From a virus, in UHGV virus genome UHGV-0373904: a stretch of DNA of 64,000 bases; one strand, given 5' to 3'. The position numbers and the translations under genes are program-made. Of this stretch, positions 3,321 to 44,733 are shown piece by piece; position 1 is the stretch's first letter; every line of letters begins with the position of its first letter. The notes beneath the pieces are model-generated. The model searched no databases. It worked only from the letters and a program-made list of their open reading frames with translations, and was not told where the DNA came from.

Positions 3321-3584
3321 ATGGAAAACGTAGAATTAACCACACTATTGCAGATTGCAACTGACAAAGAAGATGTAGCACTGTTTCACCGTATCGAAAG
3401 CGATTTATTCAATGGTGAAATCATCAAAGAATCTTACGAAGTTGTCGGATTCAAAGATGGTAAAACATTTGGATTCTTTGACCTCGAAAAAGGCAACGCT
3501 GTTACAAAATATGATGTTTTATCTTGTGAGATTCTTACAAAATACAACGAAAAAAGGCTTGCAACATACGCCAATATGCAGTAA
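3321..3584 (+). CDS. Hypothetical early protein (87 aa)
   Basis: ORF after conserved leader. Confidence 0.5.
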   Translation: MENVELTTLLQIATDKEDVALFHRIESDLFNGEIIKESYEVVGFKDGKTFGFFDLEKGNAVTKYDVLSCEILTKYNEKRLATYANMQ

Positions 3585-3585
3585 A

Positions 3586-3648
3586 TTACTAATTAACGGG
3601 GGATGACCTCCCCCACTAAGTAAAGTCCTAAACTGGAGAATCTAAATT
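3586..3648 (+). promoter_or_regulatory. Intercistronic hairpin (gggggatgacctccccc) plus conserved leader
   Basis: Leader CACTAAGTAAAGTCCTAAACTGGAGAAT. Confidence 0.55.
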
Positions 3649-3897
3649 ATGTCAACTATCCGCGTAACTGTTAATGCTTATGGCTGCCACGAACTTGATG
3701 CAAAATTCGATATCGGTGGAACAAATAACACCTTTGACCTTATCAAAATGCTGATTCAGCAGGTGCTACCAGATTATAACCCTACCGATGACTTTTGGAA
3801 GGACGCTGTAAAAGAAGCCATAAACGAGGAATATCACTACCACTACTGGGGAGAAAAAATTGTCTCCCTGTACTACAACAAGCAAGATTATAACTAA
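3649..3897 (+). CDS. Hypothetical early protein (82 aa)
   Basis: ORF after conserved leader. Confidence 0.5.
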   Translation: MSTIRVTVNAYGCHELDAKFDIGGTNNTFDLIKMLIQQVLPDYNPTDDFWKDAVKEAINEEYHYHYWGEKIVSLYYNKQDYN

Positions 3898-3907
3898 TCG
3901 ACGCAGC

Positions 3908-3960
3908 GGGGCTAAATAGCCCCAGATACCTGAAAAGCTCCTTCTCATAGGGGCTTTTTT
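3908..3960 (+). terminator. Tandem terminator-like hairpins ending the + strand early cluster
   Basis: ggggctaaatagcccc (3908-3923), then aagctcc..ggggct followed by T6 (3935-3960). Confidence 0.5.
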
Positions 3961-5569
3961 ACGTCTATGTAATAGCCTCTATACAACCCTTTCCCTTTCC
4001 TTCCTAGAATCTATCCCACTAATTCGATAGAATCTATCTCATACCTTAAAAAGCAATAACTCTATAGTCTACTCTATAACCTTTTATCAAATCAACTTAA
4101 ATAAAAGCCAATAACCCCAGAAAGGGGATGGCCCATTTAAACGCTCTATAAAGCTCTATAACAGCCTTATCAACCTAACTTAAGGGATTGCATTAACCAA
4201 CCTTAAAAAGCTCTTTACAGGGCTTTATAGAGGCTTAAAAGAATCTTATAAGGTTATAAGCTTTATTATCTCGTTAGCTATCTTGTGAATATCTAAAAAG
4301 GGCTTGTTAGTGTCTTAAAAGTATGTTATAGGGGCTTAAAAGTTACTTCAAAGTTACGTAAAAGAAGCTATGAAGTTACGTAAATGCTAGCCCCCTTAAC
4401 ATTTTCTTAACAATTTCTTAACAATCCCTACATAGTTATGCTTGTTAGAGACTTGTTAGCCCCTTGTTAAATCTCTGTTAAGACCACGTAAAAGCCTTGT
4501 AAGAACCTTTGACATAGCCTTTAAAGCCCCTGTAAAGCCCTATAAAGAGGTATCTGTACAGTTGGGGTGTAATTACTAGGAAGAGGCTTAAAAGGGCTTA
4601 CAAGGAGCTATAGAGAGCTTTTAAGAGGTATGTTTAAGGAATCACTAAGAAAGGAAAGGGAACGATAAGAAAGAGATAGTGACCATGTTAATAGCTTGTT
4701 AAAAAGATTAAACACTTGTTAGAGACTTGTTAATTATCTTAACAAAATAACTCTTAAAAATTAACTTGTTAGCTCTTGTTAGTCATCTGTTAAGACTCTG
4801 TAAAGACCATGTATCGACTGTTAAGAACTTGTTACAGCCTTGTTAGTTCTGTTAAGAATCTGTTAAGACCTCTGAAGAGATGTTAAGAGATTGAGAGAGT
4901 TGTTAAGAGATTGTTAAGGATATTTTAAAATTCTGCAAAGTACTTGTAAGGGAGCTGTTAAGGGCTACCAAGCAGATATACATCTTCTACAGATATTTTT
5001 CAGTTCCTTCAAAGACCCTAAAAAATGACTTGATAGTCCTATTTTATAAAAATTTTAAAAATCTGAATAATTACCTATACAGTCTTTCTAAAATACAGGT
5101 AATAACAGGCTTATAAGATACCTTGTTAGTACCGTGTTAGACCTTGTGAGATAAGGTCTGTAAAGATATTCCTGTTAAGTTTGTTAAAACAGTCTATATA
5201 GAGGCTTAGTAATACCTAGTGAACACCTATAGAGAGTGTCATAGCTGACATAGAGATTAAGAGGTGTATAGGAGCTTCTAAGAAGGTGTAGAGAGATGGT
5301 TAAGGTGATTGTATAGGTTGTTAAGAAGGATTGTTAGAAGAGTGTTTAGAAGGGCTATTTAGAAGGGCTATACAGAGGGCTATTAAGACCACTAGATAGT
5401 TACTAAGATACTATATAGTACTATATAACTATATAGAGAGTAAGATTAAGAAGGTTGTTAAGAAGGATAGATATTTTATTCACATATGATGGTGACCCAG
5501 AGGTTGGGACAACCGATAAAATTTTATAAAAATTAAAAAGCCCCCAATTAAGGAGGCTCTTAAGATATT
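3961..5569. repeat. ORF-free 1.6-kb field of degenerate YTGTTARR / CTTAACAA repeats
   Basis: No ORF of 60 aa or more on either strand; about 30 copies of ttgttaag/ttgttaga/ctgttaag in both orientations, densest at 4395-4500 and 4715-4920; stop codons in all frames. Confidence 0.8.
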
Positions 5570-6193
5570 TTAAATCAGGCTTTCTAAAACTGTCTTCAAG
5601 GATGACTTAGTTGTCTGGTAAAAATGAGTGAACCCATTATTGTTATCGAATATCTGCATCATGATATCATCTCCCTTGATTGGGTACACTCGGATATCAT
5701 AGTGAAACCCATTAAAGACAGCAGAACCATTACAGAACACACTAAAATCACTTGCTGAGATGTACTCTTCATGACCTGTGATTTTTATACAGACACCCTT
5801 ACTTGGTCTCTTAGGGTTGATATCTTCCATCACAGACATACTCTGTCCACCAAGAGATACCATAGTGACCACTTTACGGTTCTTCTGTTTAAAGTACATC
5901 TTAACTTTCTGCAAAGTGTCTTCATAGAATGGATAAGACCTTTCTACAAAGATTCCTTCAAGTGGCTCTTTACCATTTTCAACTTCTCGGTTATGCCGTA
6001 CTGCAAAGATAATTTGTTCGAACCAGTCAAGATTTTCTTCGGAGAGTGCTTCCCGAACATCCTTCCAGTCAAGTACTAAGTAGTTACCTTCAACTTCTTT
6101 TAAGTTATCTTTTTCCATATCTATCACACCATTATCGTAAAACTTGATATTCTGGTACTGCGAATTTATTACTATTGTTCTTGATGAGGTCAT
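5570..6193 (-). CDS. Hypothetical protein (207 aa)
   Basis: ORF; overlaps the next ORF by 62 nt so the true start may be internal. Confidence 0.5.
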   Translation of the reverse strand: MTSSRTIVINSQYQNIKFYDNGVIDMEKDNLKEVEGNYLVLDWKDVREALSEENLDWFEQIIFAVRHNREVENGKEPLEGIFVERSYPFYEDTLQKVKMYFKQKNRKVVTMVSLGGQSMSVMEDINPKRPSKGVCIKITGHEEYISASDFSVFCNGSAVFNGFHYDIRVYPIKGDDIMMQIFDNNNGFTHFYQTTKSSLKTVLESLI

Positions 6194-6596
6194 CCTCTGA
6201 AACTAAAAATGTAATACCACATAAGTGTCTGTAACGACTATCATACTCGAATATCTTAAACAGATATTTACCATCATGATAAACCTGTTGCACTTCACCT
6301 TCTGCAACAATCTCGCCTGTAATAAAATTTTTTAGTTTATACACATTACCAACTTTAGGTACTGTTTTCATCTCAGGCTCTTTTAGTGCTACACCTATTT
6401 TTGCATCACCGAGTAAATGAGAACTCTCAAAAGCTACGTGTTTCATATAAGCTTCTGAGCATTCCCATATAAAACAGTGTACAAGAACCTTAGCAGCATG
6501 TCTTGAGCAGTTCAACTTATCACAAATTTCTGTGTACATCTCATCTTTAGTAGAATTGTCAAGCATTGCTCTTTGCACTACTTCTTTAATTTTCAT
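6132..6596 (-). CDS. Hypothetical protein (154 aa)
   Basis: ORF in the - strand block. Confidence 0.5.
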   Translation of the reverse strand: MKIKEVVQRAMLDNSTKDEMYTEICDKLNCSRHAAKVLVHCFIWECSEAYMKHVAFESSHLLGDAKIGVALKEPEMKTVPKVGNVYKLKNFITGEIVAEGEVQQVYHDGKYLFKIFEYDSRYRHLCGITFLVSEDDLIKNNSNKFAVPEYQVLR

Positions 6597-8700: not shown

Positions 8701-9282
8701 TCAAGAGTATTTTTTAGGCAGCAATGCACTGCGCTTGTTACTCTCTTCACTCAATAGTGCAATGAAATCATCACTTTTACCTTTCCACGGGCTGAATGAA
8801 GGGATATGCTCACGAATGGCTTCAATCACCGTTTTCAGTGCTGTATTTTTCATCCACCAATCAGAATCTGCTGATGCTACCACGTAGTATCCACCGTCAT
8901 CAGTTAAAATTGGCTCTGAAATACATGGTGAAATCAAAGTGGTGATGATTGAACCGTTGTTCATGTAGTATGTGCGCTTCATAACCTTTTCAAGAAGCTT
9001 GTGAAGGTCACCAAACAGTGTTACAAGCTCTTTGTGGTCAATGTCTTTTTCGAGGTTTGCTCGATACTTCAATAGTGCGGCATCAACCTCTCTGTCATTG
9101 AACTTGAAATATTGAACTTCTTCAACAAGGCAAACACTGATGTTGTTAACATTCATAGTCAACTTACAAACTTTTACAGGAGAGTTGATATTTGGTTGAA
9201 AAAGTGCAATACACCCTTCAATATTTCCAAAATGCTGTACCAGTGTTACTTGTGGCGTGATATTCTGTTGCTCTTCGGACAT
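8701..9282 (-). CDS. Hypothetical protein (193 aa)
   Basis: ORF. Confidence 0.5.
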   Translation of the reverse strand: MSEEQQNITPQVTLVQHFGNIEGCIALFQPNINSPVKVCKLTMNVNNISVCLVEEVQYFKFNDREVDAALLKYRANLEKDIDHKELVTLFGDLHKLLEKVMKRTYYMNNGSIITTLISPCISEPILTDDGGYYVVASADSDWWMKNTALKTVIEAIREHIPSFSPWKGKSDDFIALLSEESNKRSALLPKKYS

Positions 9283-15999: not shown

Positions 16000-16076
16000 C
16001 TCTGTTTAGCTCAGCTTGGTAGAGCGTTCCGTTTGGGGCGGTAAGGCCGGAGGTTCAAGTCCTCCAACAGAGACCA
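16000..16076 (+). tRNA. tRNA-Pro (anticodon TGG)
   Basis: Manual fold: acceptor ctctgtt/aacagag, T-arm ggagg-ttcaagt-cctcc, anticodon loop ttTGGgg, encoded CCA. Confidence 0.75.
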
Positions 16077-16083
16077 AATTAAT

Positions 16084-16161
16084 GTTCCAGTAGACAAAAT
16101 GGTAAAGTCACCACTCTTTCAAAGTGGATATCTGAGGGTTCAAATCCCTTCTGGAACGCCA
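16084..16161 (+). tRNA. tRNA-Glu (anticodon TTC)
   Basis: Acceptor gttccag/ctggaac, anticodon stem ccact/agtgg, loop ctTTCaa, T-loop ttcaaat, CCA. Confidence 0.8.
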
Positions 16162-16162
16162 G

Positions 16163-16252
16163 TTTTGACAGAAGACCAATTACAGCAAACTTAATCTTAT
16201 TCATCTGAAGGTAAATCGGACAAAGAAGAGATTTGGTCTGGTCATTAAGAAT
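16163..16252 (+). repeat. tRNA-array spacer element copy 1 (CAGAAGACCAAT...ATTTGGTCTGG hairpin-bounded)
   Basis: 5' cagaagaccaattacagcaa and 3' tttggtctgg can pair (agaccaa/ttggtct). Confidence 0.55.
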
Positions 16253-16329
16253 TGCGGGTATAGAGAAAGGGCGTCTCACATGTCTCATTAGCATGGTATC
16301 GGCAGGTTCGACTCCTGCACCCGCCTCCA
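16253..16329 (+). tRNA. tRNA with anticodon CAT (Met or Ile2/lysidine type)
   Basis: Acceptor tgcgggt/acccgcc (1:72 mismatch), anticodon stem catgt/gcatg, loop ctCATta, T-arm gcagg-ttcgact-cctgc, CCA. Confidence 0.65.
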
Positions 16330-16330
16330 A

Positions 16331-16403
16331 TTTTGCAGAAGACCGTATTCAGCAACAAAATACTTTTGCGGATAAAAGAAAAAACACGGTCTGGCAATGT
16401 ATT
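16331..16403 (+). repeat. tRNA-array spacer element copy 2 (CAGAAGACCGT...ACGGTCTGG)
   Basis: Same flanking motif with compensatory change (agaccg/cggtct). Confidence 0.55.
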
Positions 16404-16405
16404 AA

Positions 16406-16482
16406 GGTTAGGAAGCACATAAGGTATGTGCGGTCGCCTGTTAAGCGAATGGCACAGGGTTCGAATCCCTGACTAACCGCCA
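16406..16482 (+). tRNA. tRNA-Asn (anticodon GTT)
   Basis: Acceptor ggttagg/actaacc, D-stem gcac/gtgc, anticodon loop ctGTTaa, T-arm caggg-ttcgaat-ccctg, CCA. Confidence 0.8.
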
Positions 16483-16490
16483 AATTAAAT

Positions 16491-16578
16491 GTGTCGTTAT
16501 CCCGTAGATGGTAGCGGTGGGGACTGTAAATCCCTTGTCATTGAGACTCGGTAGGTTCGACTCCTACACGGCACACCA
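16491..16578 (+). tRNA. tRNA-Tyr (anticodon GTA), long variable arm
   Basis: Acceptor gtgtcgt/acggcac, anticodon stem gggga/tccct, loop ctGTAaa, 15-nt variable arm, T-arm gtagg-ttcgact-cctac, CCA. Confidence 0.8.
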
Positions 16579-16583
16579 ATAAA

Positions 16584-16660
16584 GGCTATGTAGTTTAACT
16601 GGAGAAAATACTCCCCTGTCACGGGAGATGATGTGAGTTCAAGTCTCATCGTAGCCGCCA
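16584..16660 (+). tRNA. tRNA-Asp (anticodon GTC)
   Basis: Acceptor ggctatg/cgtagcc, anticodon stem ctccc/gggag, loop ctGTCac, CCA. Confidence 0.8.
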
Positions 16661-16720
16661 ATTTTGAGAGGGCTATTTAGCCCCTCCCTTAAAGGGTTCT
16701 TACGAGTATCCTTTAAAGGA

Positions 16721-16800
16721 GCAGAAGACCAAATACAGCAAGAACGTATGAAAATTTCAAGCCAATTTAATTTTGAAAAATTTAAAACTTGGTCTGGCTC
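16721..16800 (+). repeat. tRNA-array spacer element copy 3 (CAGAAGACCAAATACAGCAA...TTGGTCTGG)
   Basis: Same motif; preceded by terminator-like hairpin agggc-tattta-gccct and a TTAAAGG..CCTTTAA palindrome (16661-16716). Confidence 0.55.
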
Positions 16801-16940
16801 AACAAATTTACAGAAGACCGTTTACAGCAAAACTTAAACAATCTATTTCTCGGTAAAGAAAAGGCGAAGGTTCGATTCCTTCACTCGGCAGATGTCGAGT
16901 TGGTGTAATGGTAGCACTTAAGATGATAAACAACGGTCTG
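16801..16940 (+). repeat. tRNA-array spacer element copy 4 (CAGAAGACCGTTTACAGCAA...AACGGTCTGG) enclosing tRNA-like fragments
   Basis: 8-bp closing stem agaccgtt/aacggtct; the interior holds a T-arm plus 3' acceptor-like segment next to a 5' acceptor plus D-arm-like segment. Confidence 0.55.
16863..16920 (+). pseudogene. tRNA-like fragments (T-arm gaagg-ttcgatt-ccttc plus actcggc, then gtcgagt plus D-arm-like tggtgtaatggtagcac)
   Basis: A canonical T-arm with 3' acceptor-like strand is followed 4 nt later by a complementary 5' acceptor-like strand and a D-arm; no complete cloverleaf could be folded in normal order. Confidence 0.4.
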
Positions 16941-17090
16941 GTAATTATCTTTGTAGATAAGTTATTAAGCTTACCTGTGAGTATGCGACCACAAAGGGTG
17001 AAAGGGTAAATTCTAGATTTAAACCCAAAAAGGCACATCGCTACAGACCTTAAGCAAGTCTGGGTAGCTTATCTGCAAAGATAATTTAAT

Positions 17091-17166
17091 GGAAGTGTAG
17101 CAGAATGGTGATGCGGCAGACTTTTAATCTGACAGGCGATGGGTTCGAATCCCTCCACTTCTACCA
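17091..17166 (+). tRNA. tRNA-Lys (anticodon TTT)
   Basis: Acceptor ggaagtg/cacttct, anticodon stem gcaga/tctga (one mismatch), loop ctTTTaa, T-loop ttcgaat, CCA. Confidence 0.7.
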
Positions 17167-17244
17167 AATTCACCCTTAACTGAGAAACACCTGCGCGGCT
17201 GGAAACACCCACTCAACAGTTTCTCTAACTAGGGTACTTATTCT

Positions 17245-17321
17245 GGTTCAGTCGCAGATAAGGTAATGCAGGGGTTTCATAAGCCCTATGAATGTGGGTT
17301 CGATTCCCATCTGAACCTCCA
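17245..17321 (+). tRNA. tRNA-Met (anticodon CAT); GGG/CCC in the anticodon stem is initiator-like
   Basis: Acceptor ggttcag/ctgaacc, anticodon stem ggggt/gccct, loop ttCATaa, T-arm gtggg-ttcgatt-cccat, CCA. Confidence 0.75.
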
Positions 17322-17322
17322 A

Positions 17323-17398
17323 GCTGGTATAGTTAAGAAGGTTATAACACTCCCCTGATAAGGGAACATCGGTGGTTCGATTCCACCTACCAGCACCA
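17323..17398 (+). tRNA. tRNA-Ile (anticodon GAT)
   Basis: Acceptor gctggta/taccagc, anticodon loop ctGATaa, T-arm ggtgg-ttcgatt-ccacc, CCA. Confidence 0.75.
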
Positions 17399-17413
17399 AT
17401 TTCAATAAAGTTG

Positions 17414-17442
17414 TTGACATTGAGATGTGACTACTTTATAGT
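17414..17442 (+). promoter_or_regulatory. Sigma70-type promoter inside the tRNA array (TTGACA-N17-TATAGT)
   Basis: aaagttgTTGACAttgagatgtgactacttTATAGT. Confidence 0.65.
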
Positions 17443-17445
17443 AAC

Positions 17446-17733
17446 TAAAACACTTCATAATATGTATAATTCAAACACCAATACATGAGCGTTAGACGTA
17501 ACACAATGTGGGGAAATTTGTTGTACATATTCTGAATAGTTTTCGTTGCGTAGCGTCTATTTTGAAAATTTAAAATAAATGCAAACGACAATGTTTTTCT
17601 GGCAGTAGCTTGATAGGCTAAACACCAGTGAGGTCTTCCAATCCCTCATCAAAGAATTTGGCGTACTCGCCCACGGTATGATTAATAAGGTGGGCATCTT
17701 TAAGGGCTTTCTAAGAGAGTCTTTAAAGATAAT
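17446..17733 (+). other. ORF-poor 290-nt segment downstream of a promoter inside the tRNA array; candidate non-coding RNA locus
   Basis: No tRNA fold found, no ORF of 60 aa or more; lies between promoter 17414-17442 and tRNA-Arg. Confidence 0.35.
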
Positions 17734-17810
17734 GCACCCTTAGTTCAATTGGATAGAGCAACGGTCTTCTAAATCGTTAGTTACAGGTTCGAATCCTGTA
17801 GGGTGTACCA
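17734..17810 (+). tRNA. tRNA-Arg (anticodon TCT)
   Basis: Acceptor gcaccct/agggtgt, D-arm gttcaattggatagagc, anticodon stem acggt/atcgt, loop ctTCTaa, T-arm acagg-ttcgaat-cctgt, CCA. Confidence 0.8.
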
Positions 17811-17952
17811 AATAGTTAGCAGATTACTTAGACGGCCTTAGCGGGTCTTCCTGTAGGGAGGTGGTCTGTATCTCATGTTTTCCAGAACATGTAAATAATC
17901 TGAGAAGAGGCTTGACAGTGTTGAGATAACAGGGTAAGCTTCGAATTATAAT

Positions 17953-18035
17953 ATGGGACGATGTTAAGACTCTAAGGCATGAGCAACGGCCTCCAAAACC
18001 GTTTCAAAGGGGTTCAACTCCTCCGTCCCATGCCA
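17953..18035 (+). tRNA. Non-canonical tRNA-like gene (possible anticodon CCA, Trp) with expanded D region and enlarged anticodon loop
   Basis: Perfect 7-bp acceptor atgggac/gtcccat plus GCCA end and T-arm agggg-ttcaact-cctcc; anticodon stem aacgg/ccgtt encloses a 9-nt loop cctccaaaa; D region is about 6 nt too long to fold canonically. Confidence 0.4.
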
Positions 18036-18048
18036 AAGTCTTATTAGG

Positions 18049-18136
18049 GGTAGGTAGCGGCTAATGGTAGCCAAACTGTCTTGAAAACAGTTGCCACTGT
18101 AGAGATACGGTGAGGGTTCGACTCCTTTACTTACCG
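18049..18136 (+). tRNA. tRNA-Ser (anticodon TGA), class II with long variable arm
   Basis: Acceptor ggtaggt/acttacc, anticodon stem actgt/acagt, loop ctTGAaa, ~20-nt variable arm, T-loop ttcgact; CCA not encoded. Confidence 0.75.
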
Positions 18137-18289
18137 CCTAATAAGATTTACTCCGTCCATGCTTGTTCGCATTGTCGGTTTATCCCTCGTGTATTGTCGT
18201 ACACTGTCAAAGCACCTAGTAGGTGTCACGGAGAAGAGATAATATCAAGCTCTCCAAAGGTTCTAGTCACCGGATTAAACAAGACTATG

Positions 18290-18312
18290 CAAAGACCTAT
18301 TTAGGTCTTTTT
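18290..18312 (+). terminator. Rho-independent terminator inside the tRNA array
   Basis: agaccta-ttt-aggtct perfect hairpin followed by ttttt. Confidence 0.6.
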
Positions 18313-18391
18313 AGAGGGCTTCTAAGGTTATTACAGCTTGTTGTGGAACCTTGTTGCTTAGGTTCTTAGAAGTTCTCTAAAAAGATTTAAT

Positions 18392-18468
18392 GCACCTATA
18401 GCCCAACTGGTAGAGGCAGCAGACTTAGAATCTGCTCAGTGTGAGTTCGAATCTCTCTAGGTGTACCA
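18392..18468 (+). tRNA. tRNA with anticodon TAG (Leu by code) but short variable region
   Basis: Acceptor gcaccta/taggtgt (close paralog of tRNA-Arg TCT), anticodon stem gcaga/tctgc, loop ctTAGaa, 5-nt variable region, T-loop ttcgaat, CCA. Confidence 0.6.
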
Positions 18469-18475
18469 AATTAAT

Positions 18476-18551
18476 GCAGGTGTAGCAAAATGGTTATGCG
18501 GCTGACTCTTAATCAGTAAGACGATGGGTTCAATTCCCTCCACCTGTACCA
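18476..18551 (+). tRNA. tRNA-Lys (anticodon CTT)
   Basis: Acceptor gcaggtg/cacctgt, anticodon stem gctga/tcagt, loop ctCTTaa, T-loop ttcaatt, CCA; paralog of tRNA-Lys TTT. Confidence 0.65.
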
Positions 18552-18557
18552 AACATT

Positions 18558-18633
18558 GGGGTCATAGTTTATATGGTTAAAATTCGAGTTTTGCAAACTT
18601 GGGAACTGAGTTCAATTCTCAGTGACTCCACCA
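18558..18633 (+). tRNA. tRNA-Ala (anticodon TGC)
   Basis: Acceptor ggggtca/tgactcc (G3-U70), anticodon stem cgagt/acttg, loop ttTGCaa, T-arm ctgag-ttcaatt-ctcag, CCA. Confidence 0.75.
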
Positions 18634-18639
18634 ATTAGT

Positions 18640-18714
18640 GCATCCATAGTTTAAACGGGAAAATTACAGTCTTCCAAACTGAGGTTGAGGGTTCGATTCC
18701 CTCTGGATGCTCCA
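18640..18714 (+). tRNA. tRNA-Gly (anticodon TCC)
   Basis: Acceptor gcatcca/tggatgc, anticodon loop ctTCCaa, T-arm gaggg-ttcgatt-ccctc, CCA. Confidence 0.7.
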
Positions 18715-18721
18715 AATTAAT

Positions 18722-18797
18722 GCTCCTATCGTATAATTGGCTATTACGGTTGCCTTGTAAGCAACTTATCAGGGTTCGAATCCTTGTGGGAGCACCA
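18722..18797 (+). tRNA. tRNA-Thr (anticodon TGT)
   Basis: Acceptor gctccta/tgggagc, anticodon stem gttgc/gcaac, loop ctTGTaa, T-arm caggg-ttcgaat-ccttg, CCA. Confidence 0.8.
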
Positions 18798-18887
18798 ATT
18801 CAGAGGTCAAGTGAAAGACCGCTTTGAGTCAACTGAAGACCGTAACAAATTCCACGGAGTTGAGTTAGCGGCACAACTCCAGACCTC
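18793..18887 (+). repeat. Structured spacer (agaggtc ... gacctct outer stem, inner hairpin ggagttg..caactcc, GAAGACCG motif)
   Basis: Nested inverted repeats; contains ctgaagaccgtaacaaa related to the CAGAAGACC spacer family. Confidence 0.45.
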
Positions 18888-18893
18888 TTTCAT

Positions 18894-18968
18894 ACTCGCT
18901 TAGTTTATATGGTAAAACATCACCCTTACAAGATGAAGAAAAAGGTTCAAGTCCTTTAGTGAGTACCA
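18894..18968 (+). tRNA. tRNA-Val (anticodon TAC)
   Basis: Acceptor actcgct/agtgagt, D-stem gttt/aaac, anticodon loop ctTACaa, T-arm aaagg-ttcaagt-ccttt, CCA. Confidence 0.7.
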
Positions 18969-18969
18969 T

Positions 18970-19047
18970 GTTCCAGTATCCCAATTGGCAGAGGATGCAA
19001 GCTCAAACCTTGTACTAGTGACGGTTCGAATCCGTCTTGGAACACCA
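18970..19047 (+). tRNA. tRNA with anticodon CAA (Leu by code) but short variable region
   Basis: Acceptor gttccag/ttggaac, anticodon stem gcaag/cttgt, loop ctCAAac, 6-nt variable region, T-arm gacgg-ttcgaat-ccgtc, CCA. Confidence 0.65.
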
Positions 19048-19052
19048 ATTTT

Positions 19053-19128
19053 GCAGGATTAGTTCAAATGGATAGAGCAACAGTCTACGAAGCTGTTAGT
19101 AGGGGTTCGAATCCCTTATCCTGCGCCA
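19053..19128 (+). tRNA. tRNA-Arg (anticodon ACG)
   Basis: Acceptor gcaggat/atcctgc, anticodon stem acagt/gctgt, loop ctACGaa, T-loop ttcgaat, CCA. Confidence 0.75.
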
Positions 19129-19146
19129 GATAAGCAAGAGGAATTT

Positions 19147-19389
19147 ATGCAAACATTAATCGTCGTTGAACATGAAAATCCCAATAGTATTGAGTTTGTA
19201 AGGGTTCCCACTATAGATACTCACATTTTCTTGAAAGTCGGATGGGAATGCGACCCGATAAAAGTAGGAAAATTTCTTGGTCATTACTTTGGTGGAAGAC
19301 AATTTAAAAGTATCAATTTTGAGACAGTATTACCAGAAAACTCAGAAACAGACAATAATACTTACCTCCTTACGAGGATTAGACAATGA
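19147..19389 (+). CDS. Hypothetical protein (80 aa) embedded in the tRNA array
   Basis: ORF with upstream aagaggaa RBS-like sequence. Confidence 0.4.
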   Translation: MQTLIVVEHENPNSIEFVRVPTIDTHIFLKVGWECDPIKVGKFLGHYFGGRQFKSINFETVLPENSETDNNTYLLTRIRQ

Positions 19390-19943
19390 GATACTTAAAA
19401 TATGTTTCATGGATTTTCTTAGCTTTGTTAGAACCATTTGCAGCAACCCTAGCAGTCATCTTAGCACCTTTCGTAGTTCCATTCTACAGTGAGAAGAAAG
19501 GGCATCTACCTTTTGGATTCAGATGGACGGAGACCTATGACAACCCTATTGATGGTGACAAAGGCCACGTTGAGAGATGGGCTAAGATTAGAAAGATTGG
19601 TAAGCTTGGTGTCTACATGCAGAGAGTTGGATGGCTCTGGAGAAACAAAGCTTATAACTTCTCTTACCATGTATTAGGAAGAGATGTAAAAGACGTTACT
19701 AAGTGGAAAGGTAATATCAACGTAAGTTCTAACCCTGAAGATAATCAAACAGGTTATCTCCTAATGTGGAACAGTAATGCTTGGGGATTATTCGCTTTTA
19801 TCCCATCAATTAAAATCTTTGGTAAACAGTTTTACTGGAGAATTTATATTGGATGGAAACTTAAAAGTGTTGTCCCAGAAGAAAGAGCATTCTCAAGGGA
19901 AAGAGTTATGTTGGCATTCTTTATTCATCCACTGAGAAAGTAA
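19386..19943 (+). CDS. Hypothetical membrane protein (185 aa) embedded in the tRNA array
   Basis: N-terminal hydrophobic segment WIFLALLEPFAATLAVILAPFVVPF; 4-nt overlap with the upstream ORF. Confidence 0.45.
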   Translation: MRYLKYVSWIFLALLEPFAATLAVILAPFVVPFYSEKKGHLPFGFRWTETYDNPIDGDKGHVERWAKIRKIGKLGVYMQRVGWLWRNKAYNFSYHVLGRDVKDVTKWKGNINVSSNPEDNQTGYLLMWNSNAWGLFAFIPSIKIFGKQFYWRIYIGWKLKSVVPEERAFSRERVMLAFFIHPLRK

Positions 19944-19951
19944 AGATTTAA

Positions 19952-20027
19952 AGGGGATTAGTTTACAAGGTTAAAACCTCGGTCTTTGAAATCGAAGAAG
20001 TTGGTTCAATTCCAACATCCCCCGCCA
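19952..20027 (+). tRNA. tRNA-Gln (anticodon TTG)
   Basis: Acceptor aggggat/atccccc (1:72 mismatch), D-stem gttt/aaac, anticodon stem tcggt/atcga, loop ctTTGaa, T-arm gttgg-ttcaatt-ccaac, CCA. Confidence 0.7.
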
Positions 20028-20029
20028 AT

Positions 20030-20108
20030 GCTCCATTACTCCAATTGGCAGAGAGGCCAGACTTAAAATCTGTGTTATGTATCGGTTCGAATCCGATATG
20101 GAGTACCA
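20030..20108 (+). tRNA. tRNA with anticodon TAA (Leu by code) but short variable region
   Basis: Acceptor gctccat/atggagt, anticodon loop ctTAAaa, 7-nt variable region, T-arm atcgg-ttcgaat-ccgat, CCA; paralog of the CAA tRNA at 18970. Confidence 0.65.
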
Positions 20109-20113
20109 AATTT

Positions 20114-20189
20114 AGCGGTATAGCATAACTGGCAATGCAACAGTCTCTGAAGCTGTCCTATTAAGGTTCAAATCCTTATGCCGCTGCCA
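20114..20189 (+). tRNA. tRNA-Gln (anticodon CTG)
   Basis: Acceptor agcggta/tgccgct, D-stem gcat/atgc, anticodon stem acagt/gctgt, loop ctCTGaa, T-arm taagg-ttcaaat-cctta, CCA. Confidence 0.7.
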
Positions 20190-20220
20190 CTTCTAAGGAT
20201 TCTTACGAGAGTCCTTAAAT

Positions 20221-20296
20221 GTGGCCTTATCATAAAAGGTAATGACCCATGCTGTGAACATGGTCTATACGGGTTCAAATCCCGTAGGTCACCCCA
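20221..20296 (+). tRNA. tRNA-His (anticodon GTG)
   Basis: Acceptor gtggcct/aggtcac, D-stem tcat/atga, anticodon stem ccatg/catgg, loop ctGTGaa, T-arm acggg-ttcaaat-cccgt, CCA; no encoded G-1. Confidence 0.75.
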
Positions 20297-20301
20297 ATTT
20301 A

Positions 20302-20378
20302 TAGTCCAAGTAGCTTATATGGTTAAAGCGCGTGTCTGAAAAACATGAGAAGAGGGTTCAAATCCCACTGGACTACCA
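20302..20378 (+). tRNA. tRNA-Phe (anticodon GAA)
   Basis: Acceptor tagtcca/tggacta, anticodon stem cgtgt/acatg, loop ctGAAaa, T-loop ttcaaat. Confidence 0.7.
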
Positions 20379-20394
20379 ATTTCAAAGGTGCTTA

Positions 20395-21129
20395 ATGAAA
20401 GAGATGACAGAACAAGGTAAGGAGATTTTTAATCTCTTAAAAACTGGTAAAGGGTTTTCTAACCCCCTTATTACTGGTGCAGCAGTTCTCGGTGGAACCG
20501 TAGCTGCCTCTACATCACTTGTAAGCTCTATTAGCTCTGTATCAGACCCTACAGTAAAGGATAAGCTTGTTGCTGCTGGACTTACAACAGTTCTGCTTAA
20601 CAGCTTTACCACGAGTCTGACAAGCACTACATCAACTACCAAAACACTAACAGATTACGGTCAAAAGTCCATTGATGAGTTTTCATCACGTATGCAGGTA
20701 GCAAAAGGTTACTCTAATGTTATGGGTGCAGCAGGTGAACAAGTTGGCTGTACACCGTTTAGTGGTATTATGGGCGTTGCTACAGAATATGGTCAAAAAG
20801 CTATTGACACAATTAACAGTGCACTAGATGTCGTTAATGATGTATTAAGTGACTTACAAGATGCTATTGACAAAGGTCTTGATACTATTTCTGATTTAGC
20901 TAACCAAGCTGTTAGTAAGATTAATGAAGGTATTTCGAAGATTACAGCTTATGCAGATGAAGTTGTGCAGATGATTGAAGAAGAAGCTGCTCTTATTGCA
21001 GAGTACCTTAAAACGAATATCAATGGGTTCTTAGCAGGTATCTTACCAGACTGGTTTGATGATGCTTGTAAAACTGGTGTGATTGACACTATTGCAACAC
21101 CAGAAATGAAGAACGCATTACAGAAATAA
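20395..21129 (+). CDS. Hypothetical Ser/Thr-rich protein
   Basis: ORF track start 20332 lies inside tRNA-Phe; the ATG at 20395 is preceded by aaagg. Ser/Thr-rich low-complexity N-terminal region. Confidence 0.5.
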   Translation: MKEMTEQGKEIFNLLKTGKGFSNPLITGAAVLGGTVAASTSLVSSISSVSDPTVKDKLVAAGLTTVLLNSFTTSLTSTTSTTKTLTDYGQKSIDEFSSRMQVAKGYSNVMGAAGEQVGCTPFSGIMGVATEYGQKAIDTINSALDVVNDVLSDLQDAIDKGLDTISDLANQAVSKINEGISKITAYADEVVQMIEEEAALIAEYLKTNINGFLAGILPDWFDDACKTGVIDTIATPEMKNALQK

Positions 21130-21130
21130 T

Positions 21131-21223
21131 GGAAGATTAACCCTAAAAGGTAAGGGAGCAGTTTGCTAAACTGCCAGTAGCTGAGAAATCGGTGTACCAG
21201 TTCAAGTCTGGTATCTTCCTCCA
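21131..21223 (+). tRNA. tRNA-Ser (anticodon GCT), class II
   Basis: Acceptor ggaagat/atcttcc, anticodon stem gcagt/actgc, loop ttGCTaa, 21-nt variable arm, T-arm accag-ttcaagt-ctggt, CCA. Confidence 0.8.
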
Positions 21224-21227
21224 ATTT

Positions 21228-21303
21228 GAATCCGTGACAGAAATGGCTATGTGCCTGTCTGCAAAACAGGTTTATAAGGGTTCGAGTCCCTTCGGATTCT
21301 CCA
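21228..21303 (+). tRNA. tRNA-Cys (anticodon GCA)
   Basis: Acceptor gaatccg/cggattc, anticodon stem cctgt/acagg, loop ctGCAaa, T-arm aaggg-ttcgagt-ccctt, CCA. Confidence 0.8.
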
Positions 21304-21525: not shown

Positions 21526-21726
21526 ATGAGCGAGACCGTTTATAAAGAACTTTATGAAGCTAACAAGAAGCTAGAATTTATGCAGAATACTATCATGGCA
21601 ATTGCAGACAGATTATCTGTAGCAACAGGCATTGATATTAAAGAAGCATCTATGGATGCACTTCTTGATGCTGTTGATGCAAAGTTCGAAGTTAAGAAAG
21701 AAGAGACTGCTACAGACTCTGAATAA
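21526..21726 (+). CDS. Hypothetical small protein upstream of terminase (66 aa)
   Basis: ORF preceded by ggagaaaacataATG; too small for a typical small terminase subunit. Confidence 0.45.
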   Translation: MSETVYKELYEANKKLEFMQNTIMAIADRLSVATGIDIKEASMDALLDAVDAKFEVKKEETATDSE

Positions 21727-21747
21727 TTCTATTTGCGGAGGTGCTTA

Positions 21748-23349
21748 ATGGACTTAAATGCTGTTAAGCAGAAGCGAGTGGAAGATGTTAGGAAAGTCCT
21801 AGCTGGAGAGTTGGGGCTTTCTGATGAAGTAAAAGAAATTATCAAATCATTCGGTAAAGACCCCTCTAAATTCCTTCCAACTCAAATTCTGACTTTATTA
21901 AGATACACACCAGACCAAGTTCGCCTTATCTTTAAATTGATGACTGATAAGAACTATGTAGCCCCTCAGCCGGGTTCTCAAGAGGTCTTTTTAAATACTA
22001 ATGCTGACTTGGTTCTTTATGGTGGTGCTGCTGGTGCTGGTAAAACTGCTGCATTGTTAATGGACTCTTTAAGATTTATTGAAGACCCTAACTATAATGC
22101 TGTATATTTCCGTCGAAATACAACACAGTTACAAGGTGGTTTATGGCCTGCTGCAAAGAAACTATTTGGTAAGTTTGGTGGGATTCCTCACGAGCAGAAA
22201 ATGACTATTACATTCCCTTCTGGGGCAACTATTAAGTTTACCTACCTAGAACTTGAAAAGCACGCTGAAGGTCATCAGGGTATTGAATACTCAGCTATTT
22301 ACTTTGACGAAGGTACACATTTCTCTGCTTCACAGATTTCATACCTACAAACACGTCTACGTTCTGGTGCTGAAGGTGATTCATACATGAAGATTTCCAT
22401 GAACCCAGACAGAGACCACTTTATTTACGATTGGGTAGAACCATTCTTAGATGAAGAAGGTTATCCAGACCCTGAAAAGTGTGGTCGTATTCGTTGGTAT
22501 GTAATGAATGACGGTGTGATGGTTTCTGATTGGGAGAGAGACAAGATTCTTGAAATGTTCCCTCTTGAGATTCCTCAAACATACACCTTTATCTCTGGTA
22601 CGATTGATGATAACCCAATCCTTGACTTCTTAGAGCCTAAGTACCGTGGTAAGTTGGAAAACAACACCCCTGTAAACGTTGCAAGACTTCGTTTCGGTAA
22701 CTGGAAGGCTCGTGCAGAAGGTTCAAACTATTGGCAAAGACAATGGTGTGAGATTGTTGATTCACTCCCAGAAGATGTATTCGATGTTAGAGCATGGGAC
22801 TTAGCAGCAACTTTACCATCTGAGGTTAACCCTAATCCAGACTGGACAGCAGGTGTTAAGATGGGTAAATCTAAAAAAGACGGTTGCTATTATATCATTG
22901 ATGTAGTAAGATTTAGAGATAGACCCTCTGGAGTCGAAACACAAATTAATTTGACTGCTGAAAGTGATGGTAAGCGAACTGGTATTTTTATCCCTCAAGA
23001 CCCAGGCGCTGCTGGTAAATCCTACGCAACATCCCTCATCAGGAAACTTGCCGAGAAAGGCTATCGTGCAAGAGCTAAACCAACAAATAAAGATAAAGTT
23101 ACCCGATTTGCGGGGTTTTCTGCTGCTTCTGAAGCTGGACTTGTAAAAGTCTTGAGAGGTAGTTGGAATGAAGCTTACTTTCAAGAGCTTGAAGGCTTTT
23201 GTGGTGATGGCAAAACTAAAGATGACCAAGTGGATGCTACCAGTGATGCTTTCAACAGTCTTAACGAAGTTAAATTATTCAAGCCACCATCAATGGGTGC
23301 TCACACAGACTTAGTGAGAGGAAACCCATATGAGGGGCTTAGACGTTGA
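21748..23349 (+). CDS. Terminase large subunit
   Basis: Walker A YGGAAGAGKT near the N-terminus, size ~530 aa, sits directly upstream of portal. ORF track start 21733 is TTG; ATG at 21748 follows GGAGG. Confidence 0.85.
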   Translation: MDLNAVKQKRVEDVRKVLAGELGLSDEVKEIIKSFGKDPSKFLPTQILTLLRYTPDQVRLIFKLMTDKNYVAPQPGSQEVFLNTNADLVLYGGAAGAGKTAALLMDSLRFIEDPNYNAVYFRRNTTQLQGGLWPAAKKLFGKFGGIPHEQKMTITFPSGATIKFTYLELEKHAEGHQGIEYSAIYFDEGTHFSASQISYLQTRLRSGAEGDSYMKISMNPDRDHFIYDWVEPFLDEEGYPDPEKCGRIRWYVMNDGVMVSDWERDKILEMFPLEIPQTYTFISGTIDDNPILDFLEPKYRGKLENNTPVNVARLRFGNWKARAEGSNYWQRQWCEIVDSLPEDVFDVRAWDLAATLPSEVNPNPDWTAGVKMGKSKKDGCYYIIDVVRFRDRPSGVETQINLTAESDGKRTGIFIPQDPGAAGKSYATSLIRKLAEKGYRARAKPTNKDKVTRFAGFSAASEAGLVKVLRGSWNEAYFQELEGFCGDGKTKDDQVDATSDAFNSLNEVKLFKPPSMGAHTDLVRGNPYEGLRR

Positions 23350-42272: not shown

Positions 42273-44654
42273 ATGGCAGATTACAAGTTGAGTGAATTAA
42301 ACTCAATCGATACAATCCGTTCAGATGACCTTCTTCATGTCAGAGTTAAAAAGAGACCTGAAATGCTGGGTGATGAAGACCGTCGAATGACCTATCAAGA
42401 TTTCTTAGCATCTTTTAAGCTTGAGAGATTTGTTCAGATTATTGGTAGTACCATGACGGGTGATTTAGGTATTGTTAAGTTACTTTATGGTGGTAAGACA
42501 GTATTTGACCCTACAGGCTCTTCTGAGATTAATATTGGGGATGTTTTAAAGACTTTTAAAATTAACGCAAACGGTCTTAAGCTAACTATTGCAGATGCTT
42601 CAAGGTCGGCAACTGTTTATCATACCCTGAATAAGCCAAGTCCTAATGAGCTTGGGATGAGAACTAATGAAGAGAATGATGCAAGATACTCAAGATTAGC
42701 TGCAAATAACATCTTTACCTTCCAACAGGTTATTCAAGCAAATGGCGAAGCTATTAGACTAAAAAATTCTTCTGAGAACTCACCGTTGTATATTAGAGGT
42801 CAGGACAGCACTGGTGCTAATAGGTGGTATGTAGGTAATGGTTCAGGGAATGATGATGTTATTATCCACAACTACAAGACAGGTTGTGAAGTGAATCTGT
42901 CTAGTGTTGCTGCTATCAGTAAAACACTTAGAATCACTGGTCAAGTCCAACCTTCTGACTTCTCTAACTTAGATGCTAGATACTTCACACAGACAGTTGC
43001 TAATCAGAGATTTGCACAGTTAGCTGCTAATAACAATTTCACTGGCACTAACACGTTTAGCAGAAACCTACTTATTATTAGTGACAGTGCTGCTTTAAGG
43101 TTGAAAAATACTGTAGCAAATGCTGCACTATACGTTAAAGCCGAAGCTAATGATGGTTCTGGTAAGTGGTATGTAGGAAATGGTGATAATACACCTGCTG
43201 TATTCATCAGCAACTATGTGTATGGTTCTTATCTTAGACTTGACAATGGTCATGTCGCAGTAAACAAGGACTTCAGAATCACTGGTCAAGTTCAACCTTC
43301 AGATTGGGCTAACATTGACTCTAGATACATCCCAGCAGCAACTTTGAGTAACCTACCTAAACTTAATGTTGCTAACACATTTGTGAATGTGCAAACTATT
43401 GTATCAAATAATGAAGGCGTAGTATTAAGAAACTTAACACAGGGACAGCCACAATATATCCGTGGTGTTGATACCCAGAATGTATCTAGGTGGTGGGTAG
43501 GTGTGGGTGGCGCAAATTCTACTGATGTGGCATTAAACAACAGCTACTCTGGGACTCAAATTACTCTTATGCCCTCAGCGATTAAGGCTAATAAGAATCT
43601 AACCATTACTGGTCAAGTACAACCTTCTGATTGGTCTAACTTAGATGCTAGATATTTCTTAAAAACAAAACTGTTAAACCAACCTTTAATGATAAGGACA
43701 ACTAATAGGCTGGATGACCCATCAGCATTCAATAAAGATTTTTCAGGGTTTGTAAGAAACAACGGTATTGAGCAGGGTCTGAAAGATTTAGCCATCCATG
43801 TAGCACATTCTGCTGGTATTGCTCATGCCAGAGGTATTGCTTTTACATATGGGTCTAAAGGTCTTGATGTCTTCACATATGCTTATGGGTCAGATGGAAC
43901 ATATGTTGGAGAGGCACAGTTGTATTCAACGGCATTTAAACCAACCCCTTCAGATATTGGTGCATACACTAAATCAGAAACTGACCAGAAGATTGCACAG
44001 GCAATTAGTGACTCTACAGACCTTAACAAAATCTATCCAGTAGGTATTGTAACATGGTTTAACAGTAATGTTGACCCTAACACAGCGTTGCCTGGGTTAA
44101 CTTGGACGTACCTGAATAATGGTGTTGGTAGAACTATCAGAATTGCAGCAGCAAACGGTTCAGATGTTGCTACAACTGGTGGTTCAGATTCTGTGACGTT
44201 AGCTGTTGGGAACTTACCATCACATACCCATAGCTTCTCTGCTACCACTTCATCTTTTGATTATGGTACGAAGGGAACTAACAGTACTGGTGGTCATTCT
44301 CACTCTGTAAGTGGTACAACAAGTGCTGCTGGCAACCACGCTCACCACTTAGGTCTGTTATTAGTTAATGGTGGTGATGCTCAGTATGGTTACACAACTG
44401 TTAGCAACAGCAAGACAAGAACTCTTGACTGGCTTGATAGAAAAGATAACAAGTTCCCTAACACTAACACAACTGGTAACCATACACACACGTGGTCTGG
44501 TACTACAAGCGGTGCTGGTGACCATTCCCACTCTGTAGGTATTGGTGCTCACACTCATACAGTTAGTGGTAACACTGGTGGTACAGGTTCTGGTTCGGCA
44601 TTCAGTGTTACTAACCAGTTCTACAAGTTAATGGCTTGGGTAAGAACTGCTTAA
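42273..44654 (+). CDS. Tail fibre protein, three internal ~110-aa repeats and His-rich GxHxH C-terminal domain
   Basis: Three repeats each containing ITGQVQPSD(F/W)(S/A)N(L/I)D(A/S)RY; C-terminal [43 protein letters not shown]; ends ..KLMAWVRTA, similar to the end of 41039..42226. Confidence 0.7.
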
Positions 44655-44733
44655 TCCCTTGTTGACTGATTGTTAAGATGGTGTTAATATTCTTTATGGG
44701 TATTCTCACCATCTTGGCTGATGAGGTGATTAA

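Follow-up and report, generated by a model that had tools for sequence, protein, structure and literature searches.

In this study, we analysed the interval 3961-5569 of the virus genome UHGV-0373904, a stretch of 64,000 nucleotides that is referred to as the window throughout. A preliminary description of the sequence had singled out this interval as a field free of open reading frames (ORFs) and saturated with the motif YTGTTARR. By homology, the window is assigned to Felixounavirus (Felix O1-like myophages, subfamily Ounavirinae), and the interval is its predicted terminus or concatemer-junction region, in which positions 4390-4969 represent the putative direct terminal repeat (DTR) of the virion DNA. 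As a whole, the region is best explained, with moderate confidence on our side, as a phased protein-binding scaffold within the DTR that would mark the genome ends for the terminase. Three aspects had been missed in the preliminary description, namely that the repeats are regularly spaced by 11 bp, that the DTR is already documented in the genus, and that the motif equals the recognition element of the host regulator ArcA.

About 260 records of Felix O1-like myophages (Ounavirinae, mostly Felixounavirus) match the sequence 3900-5600 at 76-96% identity, and the top match is Escherichia phage LMP34 (95%). The large terminase ORF 21733-23349 is of the T4 type (phrog_979, E = 1e-233; Pfam Terminase_6N and Terminase_6C), and according to these PHROG and Pfam matches, rather than a tree, it belongs to the terminase lineage expected for an Ounavirinae DTR. 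In the collapsed assembly the DTR is present as a single copy of 580 bp, and its position was obtained from the termini of relatives. Escherichia phage ZX4221 carries an exact repeat at both ends of its record (591 of 591 bases), which maps to window positions 4390 and 4969, and the annotated repeats at both ends of Citrobacter phage HP1 (genus Mooglevirus; 570 of 570) map to the same two positions. The linear records of at least ten further relatives begin at 4390 or end at about 4969, and Kolesnikvirus records start at the homologous TA/GCC, the slash marking the record start. In the UAB_69 record, the annotated 'DTR' aligns to 4388-4971 and is thus 2 nt wider on each side. For UAB_Phi87 (Felixounavirus), a DTR of 608 bp was mapped by Bal31 digestion and run-off sequencing (PMC4837284), and for Pr103Blw a DTR of 581 bp was determined with PhageTerm (PMC8303462); the UAB_69 record and the UAB_Phi87 mapping come from the same laboratory. 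Because the record ends of the relatives, the UAB_69 annotation and the mapped DTRs of the genus coincide here, 4390-4969 was taken as the collapsed DTR, with predicted terminase cuts at 4389/4390 and 4969/4970, each to within about 2 nt. The physical terminus of a linear genome, one of several roles considered earlier, is thereby supported. What the region is had therefore been established for the genus before, the element being none other than the documented terminal repeat of Felixounavirus.

The description of the interval as free of genes was confirmed. No ORF of at least 40 amino acids is present in 3949-5569, and the longest one inside has 35 amino acids. Among 25 homologous intervals, none carries a gene across the region; their longest ORFs comprise 26-65 amino acids and vary in place and strand. 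The plus-strand ORFs stop at 3897, and the minus-strand ORF 5570-6193 has its stop codon at 5570-5572, so that the interval is convergent and, with terminators on both sides, intergenic, as had been stated. A promoter zone was dropped from consideration because a scan for sigma-70 promoters returned 10 sites versus 9.4 in shuffled sequences. Also the proposed non-coding RNA locus was abandoned, because an Rfam scan of 3800-5700 at permissive E-values gave noise only (the best matches, with E = 0.18 and 0.66, did not come near the gathering scores).

Motif counts were compared with 1000 dinucleotide-preserving shuffles of 3961-5569. The full motif YTGTTARR is present 20 times in the interval versus 0.99 ± 0.94 in the shuffles (maximum 5). 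The earlier figure of about 30 copies therefore does not hold for YTGTTARR, but it does for the core TGTTAR (31 versus 2.98 expected). In the whole window YTGTTARR occurs 67 times (36.5 expected), and 20 of the 67 copies lie within 4406-5462. The 580-bp segment richest in TGTTAR of all 64 kb starts at 4381 and holds 23 copies, while the best segment elsewhere holds 7. The words ctataga and ctttatag, likewise pointed out before, are enriched as well (10 per kb inside versus 0.67 per kb outside). A CRISPR array had rightly been excluded, as the units are 11 bp long with cores of 6-7 bp, compared with the identical repeats of at least 23 nt and the unique, similarly long spacers of CRISPR.

Within the DTR, TGTTAR is present 23 times versus 1.5 in shuffles, and about eight more copies are found in the flanking non-coding arms. 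The consensus of the element is cTTGTTA(A/G)ga. The spacing had been called irregular; instead, 11 successive same-strand spacings in 4390-4969 measure 10-11 bp versus 1.2 at random (0 of 5000 trials reached 11), and the longer same-strand spacings group at 20-22, 31-33 and 42-44 bp. At the left end, three TGTTAA on the minus strand, 11 bp apart, face the left cut site at a distance of 7-35 bp from the left end (4395-4425; TTGTTAAGAAATTGTTAAGAAAATGTTAAGG). This triple is nearly invariant in the relatives, with the 11-bp unit in 2-5 copies. Its part cttaacaatttcttaacaat, previously placed at 4396-4416, is actually located at 4406-4425. On the plus strand, the array 4441-4550 (repeat families D1-D3) starts with four TGTTAR 11 bp apart (4443-4481), followed by the degenerate 11-bp units cgtaaa, tgtaag, tttaaa, tgtaaa and tataaa. 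Four further plus-strand TGTTAR with spacings of 11, 20 and 11 bp are contained in 4685-4734 (elements 4686-4733), a single minus-strand copy follows at 4739, and the plus-strand arrays at 4766-4867 comprise seven TGTTAR with spacings of 10, 11, 31, 22, 9 and 11 bp (4767-4866). The right-end array on the plus strand (4880-4964; elements 4881-4961) faces the right cut site. TGTTAAGGG (4956-4964), its last element, stops 5 bp short of the right end and is the inverted counterpart of CCCTTAACA at 4393-4401; in 64 kb TGTTAAGGG is found three times, at 4956 (plus strand), 4393 (minus strand) and 45171. The inverted repeats I2, I5 and I8 also pair the two ends of the DTR. Because the left triple on the minus strand and the right array on the plus strand both face outward to the cuts, the DTR ends are inverted copies of each other.

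These elements are selectively conserved. Among 21 relatives of the three nearer genera, the mean pairwise identity is 0.952 for element cores versus 0.812 for spacers, and 0 of 579 circular shifts of the core mask reached this difference. The array layout is the same in Mooglevirus and Suspvirus, and it is kept in principle in the distant genus Kolesnikvirus, where sequence identity in the region drops to about 50%; the Erwinia phages of this genus also have convergent gene blocks and about 1.4 kb without genes in between. The DTR lengths predicted for 32 related loci (L001-L088) range from 567 to 658 bp and cluster at 570, 580, 591, 602, 613, 623, 635 and 658 bp, with 439 bp in Kolesnikvirus. 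The classes are about 11 bp apart, and the alignment of the relatives shows that whole 11-bp units were gained and lost. The length classes would fit a gain and loss of units that preserves the helical phase. Phasing, core conservation and 11-bp length steps can be regarded as marks of a predicted protein-binding array held in helical register. The array being kept across genera as well, the earlier suggestion of a protein-binding array appears well founded.

As 11-bp units are gained and lost between phages, replication slippage does occur, and the arrays might be its neutral products without any function. However, slippage alone would not account for cores that are more conserved than spacers, nor for the retention of the element number across genera with about 50% sequence divergence. 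Taken together with a non-coding RNA, against which the missing Rfam match above noise and the chance level of promoter-like sites count, this is the explanation to which we give the least credence of all. In the literature searched, no description of motif arrays in Felixounavirus termini was found, no link of TGTTAR arrays to ArcA or of ArcA to Felix O1, and nothing relevant on Felixounavirus transcriptomes. The motif architecture inside the DTR appears to be undescribed in searchable papers.

According to the explanation that we favour, the terminase would cut replicated concatemers at 4389/4390 and 4969/4970 during packaging, as judged from the mapped and annotated termini of relatives, so that every virion DNA would carry the 580-bp repeat at both ends. 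The arrays would offer one element per helical turn (11 bp) in head-to-tail order, with the end arrays directed outward to both cuts. Phasing, selective conservation and retention across genera suggest that a protein coats these arrays head to tail along one face of the helix, and the resulting nucleoprotein array may mark the repeat and position the terminase for two symmetric cuts. In the Watson model, as for T7, two full repeats can be obtained from one junction copy only by opposite-strand nicks at the boundaries and fill-in synthesis. The inverted recognition elements beside each cut would fit this requirement for opposite-strand nicking. A small terminase subunit could not be recognised in the window: the conserved ORF 21526-21726 (66 amino acids), directly upstream of the large terminase gene, belongs to phrog_4397 of unknown function and has no Pfam match. 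None is annotated in the curated Bas63 record, and none was recognisable in these phages before (Whichard 2010).

Helically phased direct repeats, as present here, are at the same time the hallmark of iteron origins, at which a phage or host initiator binds and opens adjoining A+T-rich DNA. An A+T-rich tract (5030-5075) is located just right of the DTR, the convergent terminators shut transcription out of the region, and the local GC skew changes its sign near 4300-4400, being negative in the left arm (3961-4389) and positive to its right. However, the skew flip is explained by the motif, which is G-rich and itself switches strand. The scan for DnaA boxes showed no enrichment and only one box, TTATTCACA at 5476, and an initiator gene neither adjoins the region nor was recognised in the proteome. 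Also, the densest arrays match the DTR to within about 10 bp and face its boundaries, and an origin needs neither. We consider a replication origin at this place improbable. A scan for the consensus of the host protein IHF showed no enrichment and no site in the interval.

As the DTR is present at both ends, the outermost elements are 7 bp and 5 bp away from the physical ends, and a host protein that is already present could bind them as soon as the DNA enters. The arrays might act on the entering DNA end, either as an entry pause of the T5 first-step transfer type or as the landing pad of a protein that shields the end from RecBCD. An injection pause had been listed among the candidate roles; for one of the T5 type the comparison was negative, as the T5 injection stop region contains no TGTTAR (0 per kb) and no ArcA-like array. 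In the window phage the arrays are not separated from the end by a pre-early block, transcription of the adjacent genes runs towards the ends, and the literature searched held no evidence of two-step injection in this phage group. A function at entry is therefore rated as very improbable.

With respect to the protein that might coat the scaffold, the element itself points to a candidate. Phosphorylated ArcA (ArcA-P) is the OmpR/PhoB-type response regulator of the ArcAB redox system and forms head-to-tail dimers and oligomers on direct repeats. ArcA sites are built from at least two TGTTA(A) repeats at a distance of 11 bp, and many have three to five of them at 11 or 22 bp (PMC3798270, PMC4173790, PMC7303359). 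The minimal ArcA-P site has two repeats, 5'-ATGTTAAAAA-1-ATGTTAAAAA-3', and binding to multi-repeat sites is cooperative and bends the DNA (PMC3798270, PMC4173790). Element and spacing in the DTR equal the published ArcA-P consensus TGTTAA(N5)TGTTAA, with at least two direct TGTTA repeats at a centre-to-centre distance of 11 bp. The exact consensus is present seven times in the window versus 0.06 expected, and six of the seven copies are in the DTR. The sole copy outside, TGTTAAGATGGTGTTAA at 44671-44687, is located just downstream of an ORF of 793 amino acids that ends at 44654; the 580-bp segments richest in TGTTAR outside the interval (7 copies) start at 43941-44021, just upstream of it.

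For a quantitative comparison, a weight matrix was derived from 115 of 128 ArcA boxes of E. coli obtained by chromatin immunoprecipitation sequencing (ChIP-seq; Table S3 of the ArcA ChIP-seq paper), and the background for the box density was taken from 422 kb of viral DNA that is unrelated but equal in G+C content. In the DTR, 14 boxes reach at least 10 bits and 7 at least 15 bits, with a maximum of 22.7 bits, while the ChIP-seq boxes range from 9 to 21 bits. The left-end triple gave the best scores of the window (22.5 and 22.7 bits; top training box 21.5, n = 115). In the other arrays, the boxes score 10.6-17.9 bits (4441-4550), 17.7 and 15.7 bits (4685-4734), 10.4-14.6 bits (4766-4867) and 18.8 and 15.3 bits (right-end array, 4880-4964). 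The remaining 62.4 kb of the window contain four boxes of at least 15 bits. The density of such boxes is 12.1 per kb in the DTR versus 0.107 per kb in the unrelated viral DNA, i.e. 113-fold higher. A like load is carried by all four genera, with 14-17 boxes of at least 10 bits and 7-9 of at least 15 bits; the 14-17 boxes per DTR compare with 2-5 repeat elements at any host site. The variant elements of Kolesnikvirus (TGTTGC, TGTTAC, CGTTAA, TGTAAA) are of kinds that are present in host ArcA boxes. No ArcA-like arrays were detected at the T7 ends or in the T5 long terminal repeat including the injection stop signal. T5 (L096) has two isolated strong ArcA-like boxes, 5316-5333 (23.6 bits) and 6578-6595 (21.0 bits), which are located in the left terminal repeat near pre-early promoters, where no array is present.

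Since element and spacing are those of ArcA-P, the binder of the scaffold could be host ArcA-P as an architectural cofactor, like IHF at lambda cos, or a phage protein of the same geometry. A relevant OmpR/PhoB-type domain was not seen among the best 25 of 90 Pfam families matched by the 120 phage proteins, which is a weak negative. Equally weak is the outcome of a small hidden Markov model made from approximate sequences of ArcA, PhoB and OmpR, whose best E-value was 0.038 for the ORF 8701-9279; no OmpR/PhoB-type domain was found in this ORF with Pfam or PDB sequences. As a tentative proposal, which we regard as possible rather than probable, the DTRs across four Ounavirinae genera would be giant arrays of genuine ArcA-P sites that recruit or soak up the regulator at the genome ends. 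In that case ArcA-P may assist end cutting and packaging as an architectural cofactor, or it may help to sense or rewire the redox metabolism of the host.

True ArcA-P sites could also have a regulatory or decoy role instead of one in packaging. With about 23 elements per repeat and hundreds of genomes, replicating phage DNA may titrate ArcA-P and thereby re-program respiration and central metabolism; alternatively, ArcA-P occupancy may make a phage process responsive to the redox conditions of its host in the gut, or it may displace H-NS from the A+T-rich ends. The consensus and matrix matches in the DTR favour such a role as much as the cooperative binding of ArcA-P to multi-repeat sites (PMC3798270). 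ArcA and TraJ displace H-NS at the PY promoter of plasmid R1, an example of a mobile element exploiting host ArcA (PMC7303359). The phage encodes aerobic and anaerobic ribonucleotide reductases, which would fit growth at low oxygen. In a transposon screen of Salmonella, loss of arcB gave resistance to Felix O1 (PMC8744999). However, a decoy needs no exact placement in the DTR with arrays facing both cuts, no regulated gene is obvious with promoter-like sites at chance level, and TGTTAG elements and G+C-rich spacers fit ArcA poorly; also arcA itself is not among the Felix O1 hits of the screen. Altogether, a regulatory or decoy role appears unlikely to us, although not remotely so.

Several points weigh against the scaffold that we favour, and in particular against ArcA as its binder. 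The predicted DTR boundaries of the window phage rest on homology to relatives. TGTTAG accounts for 10 of the 31 elements, and among ArcA repeat elements only 3% have a G at this position. The spacers of ArcA sites are rich in A+T, but many of those found here are G+C-rich; the left-end triple has both an A+T-rich spacer and A, C or T after TGTTA. No gene start adjoins the arrays and promoter-like sites are at chance, so that the arrays do not overlap a promoter. The Salmonella screen, which was grown in LB, connects loss of arcB, but not of arcA, with Felix O1 resistance, and the absence of arcA from these resistance genes indicates no more than that ArcA is not essential under the conditions of the screen (PMC8744999). 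If these cultures were aerobic, ArcA would have been largely unphosphorylated. The arcB hit was shared with a T5-like phage, and the authors relate several shared non-receptor genes to RpoS activity (PMC8744999). Beside this hit, the two isolated ArcA-like boxes of T5 are a curious observation. In T7, barcode insertions were tolerated at most loci near the genome ends (bioRxiv 10.1101/2024.10.10.617714), and comparable arrays may for this reason be dispensable or redundant. Finally, TGTTAA arrays at 11-bp spacing are also present in unrelated uncultivated viral contigs.

These contigs came from IMG/VR, which was scanned for three TGTTAA spaced by 11 bp and yielded more than 120 loci. Non-coding TGTTAA clusters, often arranged in inverted groups, are located for example at L147 7230-7560, L149 10870-11060, L188 2245-2310, L140 595-800 and L163 4180-4500. 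The two contigs that were searched, L147 and L149, had no match among known phages. The IMG/VR arrays fit a host binder and a phage binder alike and do not discriminate between them.

The DTR is flanked by two non-coding arms. The left arm (3961-4389) is free of ORFs and would be, in the virion, unique sequence just inside the right-end copy of the DTR. It has short repeats of its own, namely ctctataa, ggcttaaaag and aagttacgtaaa (direct-repeat families D4, D9 and D10), and its mean pairwise identity among the 21 relatives is 0.75. The right arm (4970-5569) would correspondingly be unique sequence just inside the left-end copy. It contains seven more plus-strand TGTTAR elements in addition to the A+T-rich tract mentioned above, and its mean pairwise identity is 0.83. 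The word AAGCAGATATACA is found just outside the right boundary, and this boundary word is conserved from Felixounavirus to Kolesnikvirus. Several relatives (L029, L040, L073, L088) carry a 24-bp insertion, ATGAGGTAGATTCTACCGAATCAA, 15 bp right of the right DTR boundary; the window is without it (would-be site 4984/4985). Each end of the right arm has a copy of an A+T-rich word, attttataaaaatt, which is repeated both directly and in inverted orientation (5041-5057 and 5517-5533); the copy at 5517-5533 belongs to the T-run of the minus-strand terminator. Two inverted repeats connect the left arm with the DTR. The 31-nt imperfect inverted repeat I1 (4211-4241 and 4519-4549) is 87% complementary and has its centre near the left cut site, and a 15-nt pyrimidine/purine pair, ttccctttccttcct and agaaaggaaagggaa (3991-4005 and 4648-4662; 93% complementary), leads into the motif-poor middle of the DTR.

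The plus-strand gene cluster is closed by hairpins and a terminator at 3908-3965 (plus strand), with hairpin and T-run visible in the sequence, and phage ASO1A has a rho-independent terminator annotated at the homologous place (L002 3037-3066). The terminator of the minus-strand gene block was detected by a scan at 5536-5561 (minus strand; 10-pair stem followed by a T-run), and here, too, ASO1A has an annotated terminator at the homologous place. The neighbouring ORFs 3649-3897 and 5570-6193 gave no Pfam match and only PHROGs of unknown function, and by eye they show no obvious similarity to the Kolesnikvirus ORF at the same position. An intergenic hairpin element, gggggatgacctccccc, is located with its flanks at 3580-3646 and in a partial copy at 2141-2167, and it recurs between several early genes of relatives (L004, L005, L009). 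Probably, it is a repeated terminator element corresponding to the direct repeats between early genes described by Whichard 2010. In the terminase region, the large terminase probably starts at ATG 21748, which is preceded by GGAGG, rather than at TTG 21733. A set of 26 tRNA genes on the plus strand occupies 16000-21303 and ends some 220 bp short of the small ORF in front of the large terminase gene.

As an object, the region is ordinary and documented, and it illustrates that what stands out in a phage assembly as an ORF-free repeat field may be no more than a collapsed terminal repeat. The true ends, predicted at 4390 and 4969, matter for the orientation, annotation and engineering of Felix O1-like therapeutic and diagnostic phages. 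New is the conserved, helically phased array with end arrays facing both cuts and with an element that equals the ArcA recognition sequence; this internal architecture and the quantitative ArcA match provide a testable new hypothesis of moderate interest. If a host regulator takes part in the end-forming or packaging complex, or is titrated, the success of infection would be coupled to the redox conditions and the oxygen status of gut bacteria. Such an outcome would in addition point to a function of the short-repeat arrays at T7-like genome ends, which have long lacked an explanation.

Among known systems, the T7 ends are alike in having a short exact DTR, non-coding flanks and a 7-bp word repeated about one helical turn apart in or near the repeat. 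In the T7 sequence, arrays of the heptamer CCTAAAG are present in and beside the 160-bp DTR, and Dunn and Studier reportedly named these end arrays SRL and SRR in 1983. The words differ (CCTAAAG in T7, TGTTAAG here), and the T7 ends are without ArcA-like boxes. Most T7 arrays are located outside the repeat and all point in one direction, whereas here they are in the DTR and face both cuts. Also, T7 end formation uses the phage's own RNA polymerase, which the window phage does not have. As an analogy, the likeness to the T7 ends is one of design only. The T5 injection stop is a repeat-rich non-coding inner edge of a long terminal repeat that holds the pre-early genes, compared with a gene-free repeat of 580 bp here. 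Iteron origins (lambda ori, P1 oriR, plasmid iterons) share the helically phased direct repeats next to A+T-rich DNA; in contrast to them, the window has no initiator gene or DnaA-box cluster, and its arrays coincide with the DTR.

Terminase recognition sites built from repeats are known from the hexamers of P1 pac, the pacL and pacR boxes of SPP1, and lambda cosB with IHF. There, too, the site of terminase cutting is bordered by short repeats, and participation of a host architectural protein is possible. These sites, however, have far fewer repeats and a known small subunit, while the window phage has no recognisable one and its two predicted cuts are 580 bp apart. Host ArcA-P sites share the TGTTA(A) core, the direct repeats, the centre-to-centre distance of 11 bp and the additional elements at 11 or 22 bp; they comprise 2-5 repeats and overlap promoters, compared with about 23 repeats in 580 bp and no promoter in the DTR. 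An example on mobile elements is the ArcA site of the PY promoter of the F and R1 plasmids, TGTTAAGTAAATGTTAA, which was footprinted in R1 (PMC7303359). Closest are the Felixounavirus DTRs of UAB_Phi87, UAB_69 and Pr103Blw, which have homologous sequence, boundaries within 2 nt and the same convergent gene blocks. From these nothing essential differs, and the lengths vary between the phages in steps of about 11 bp.

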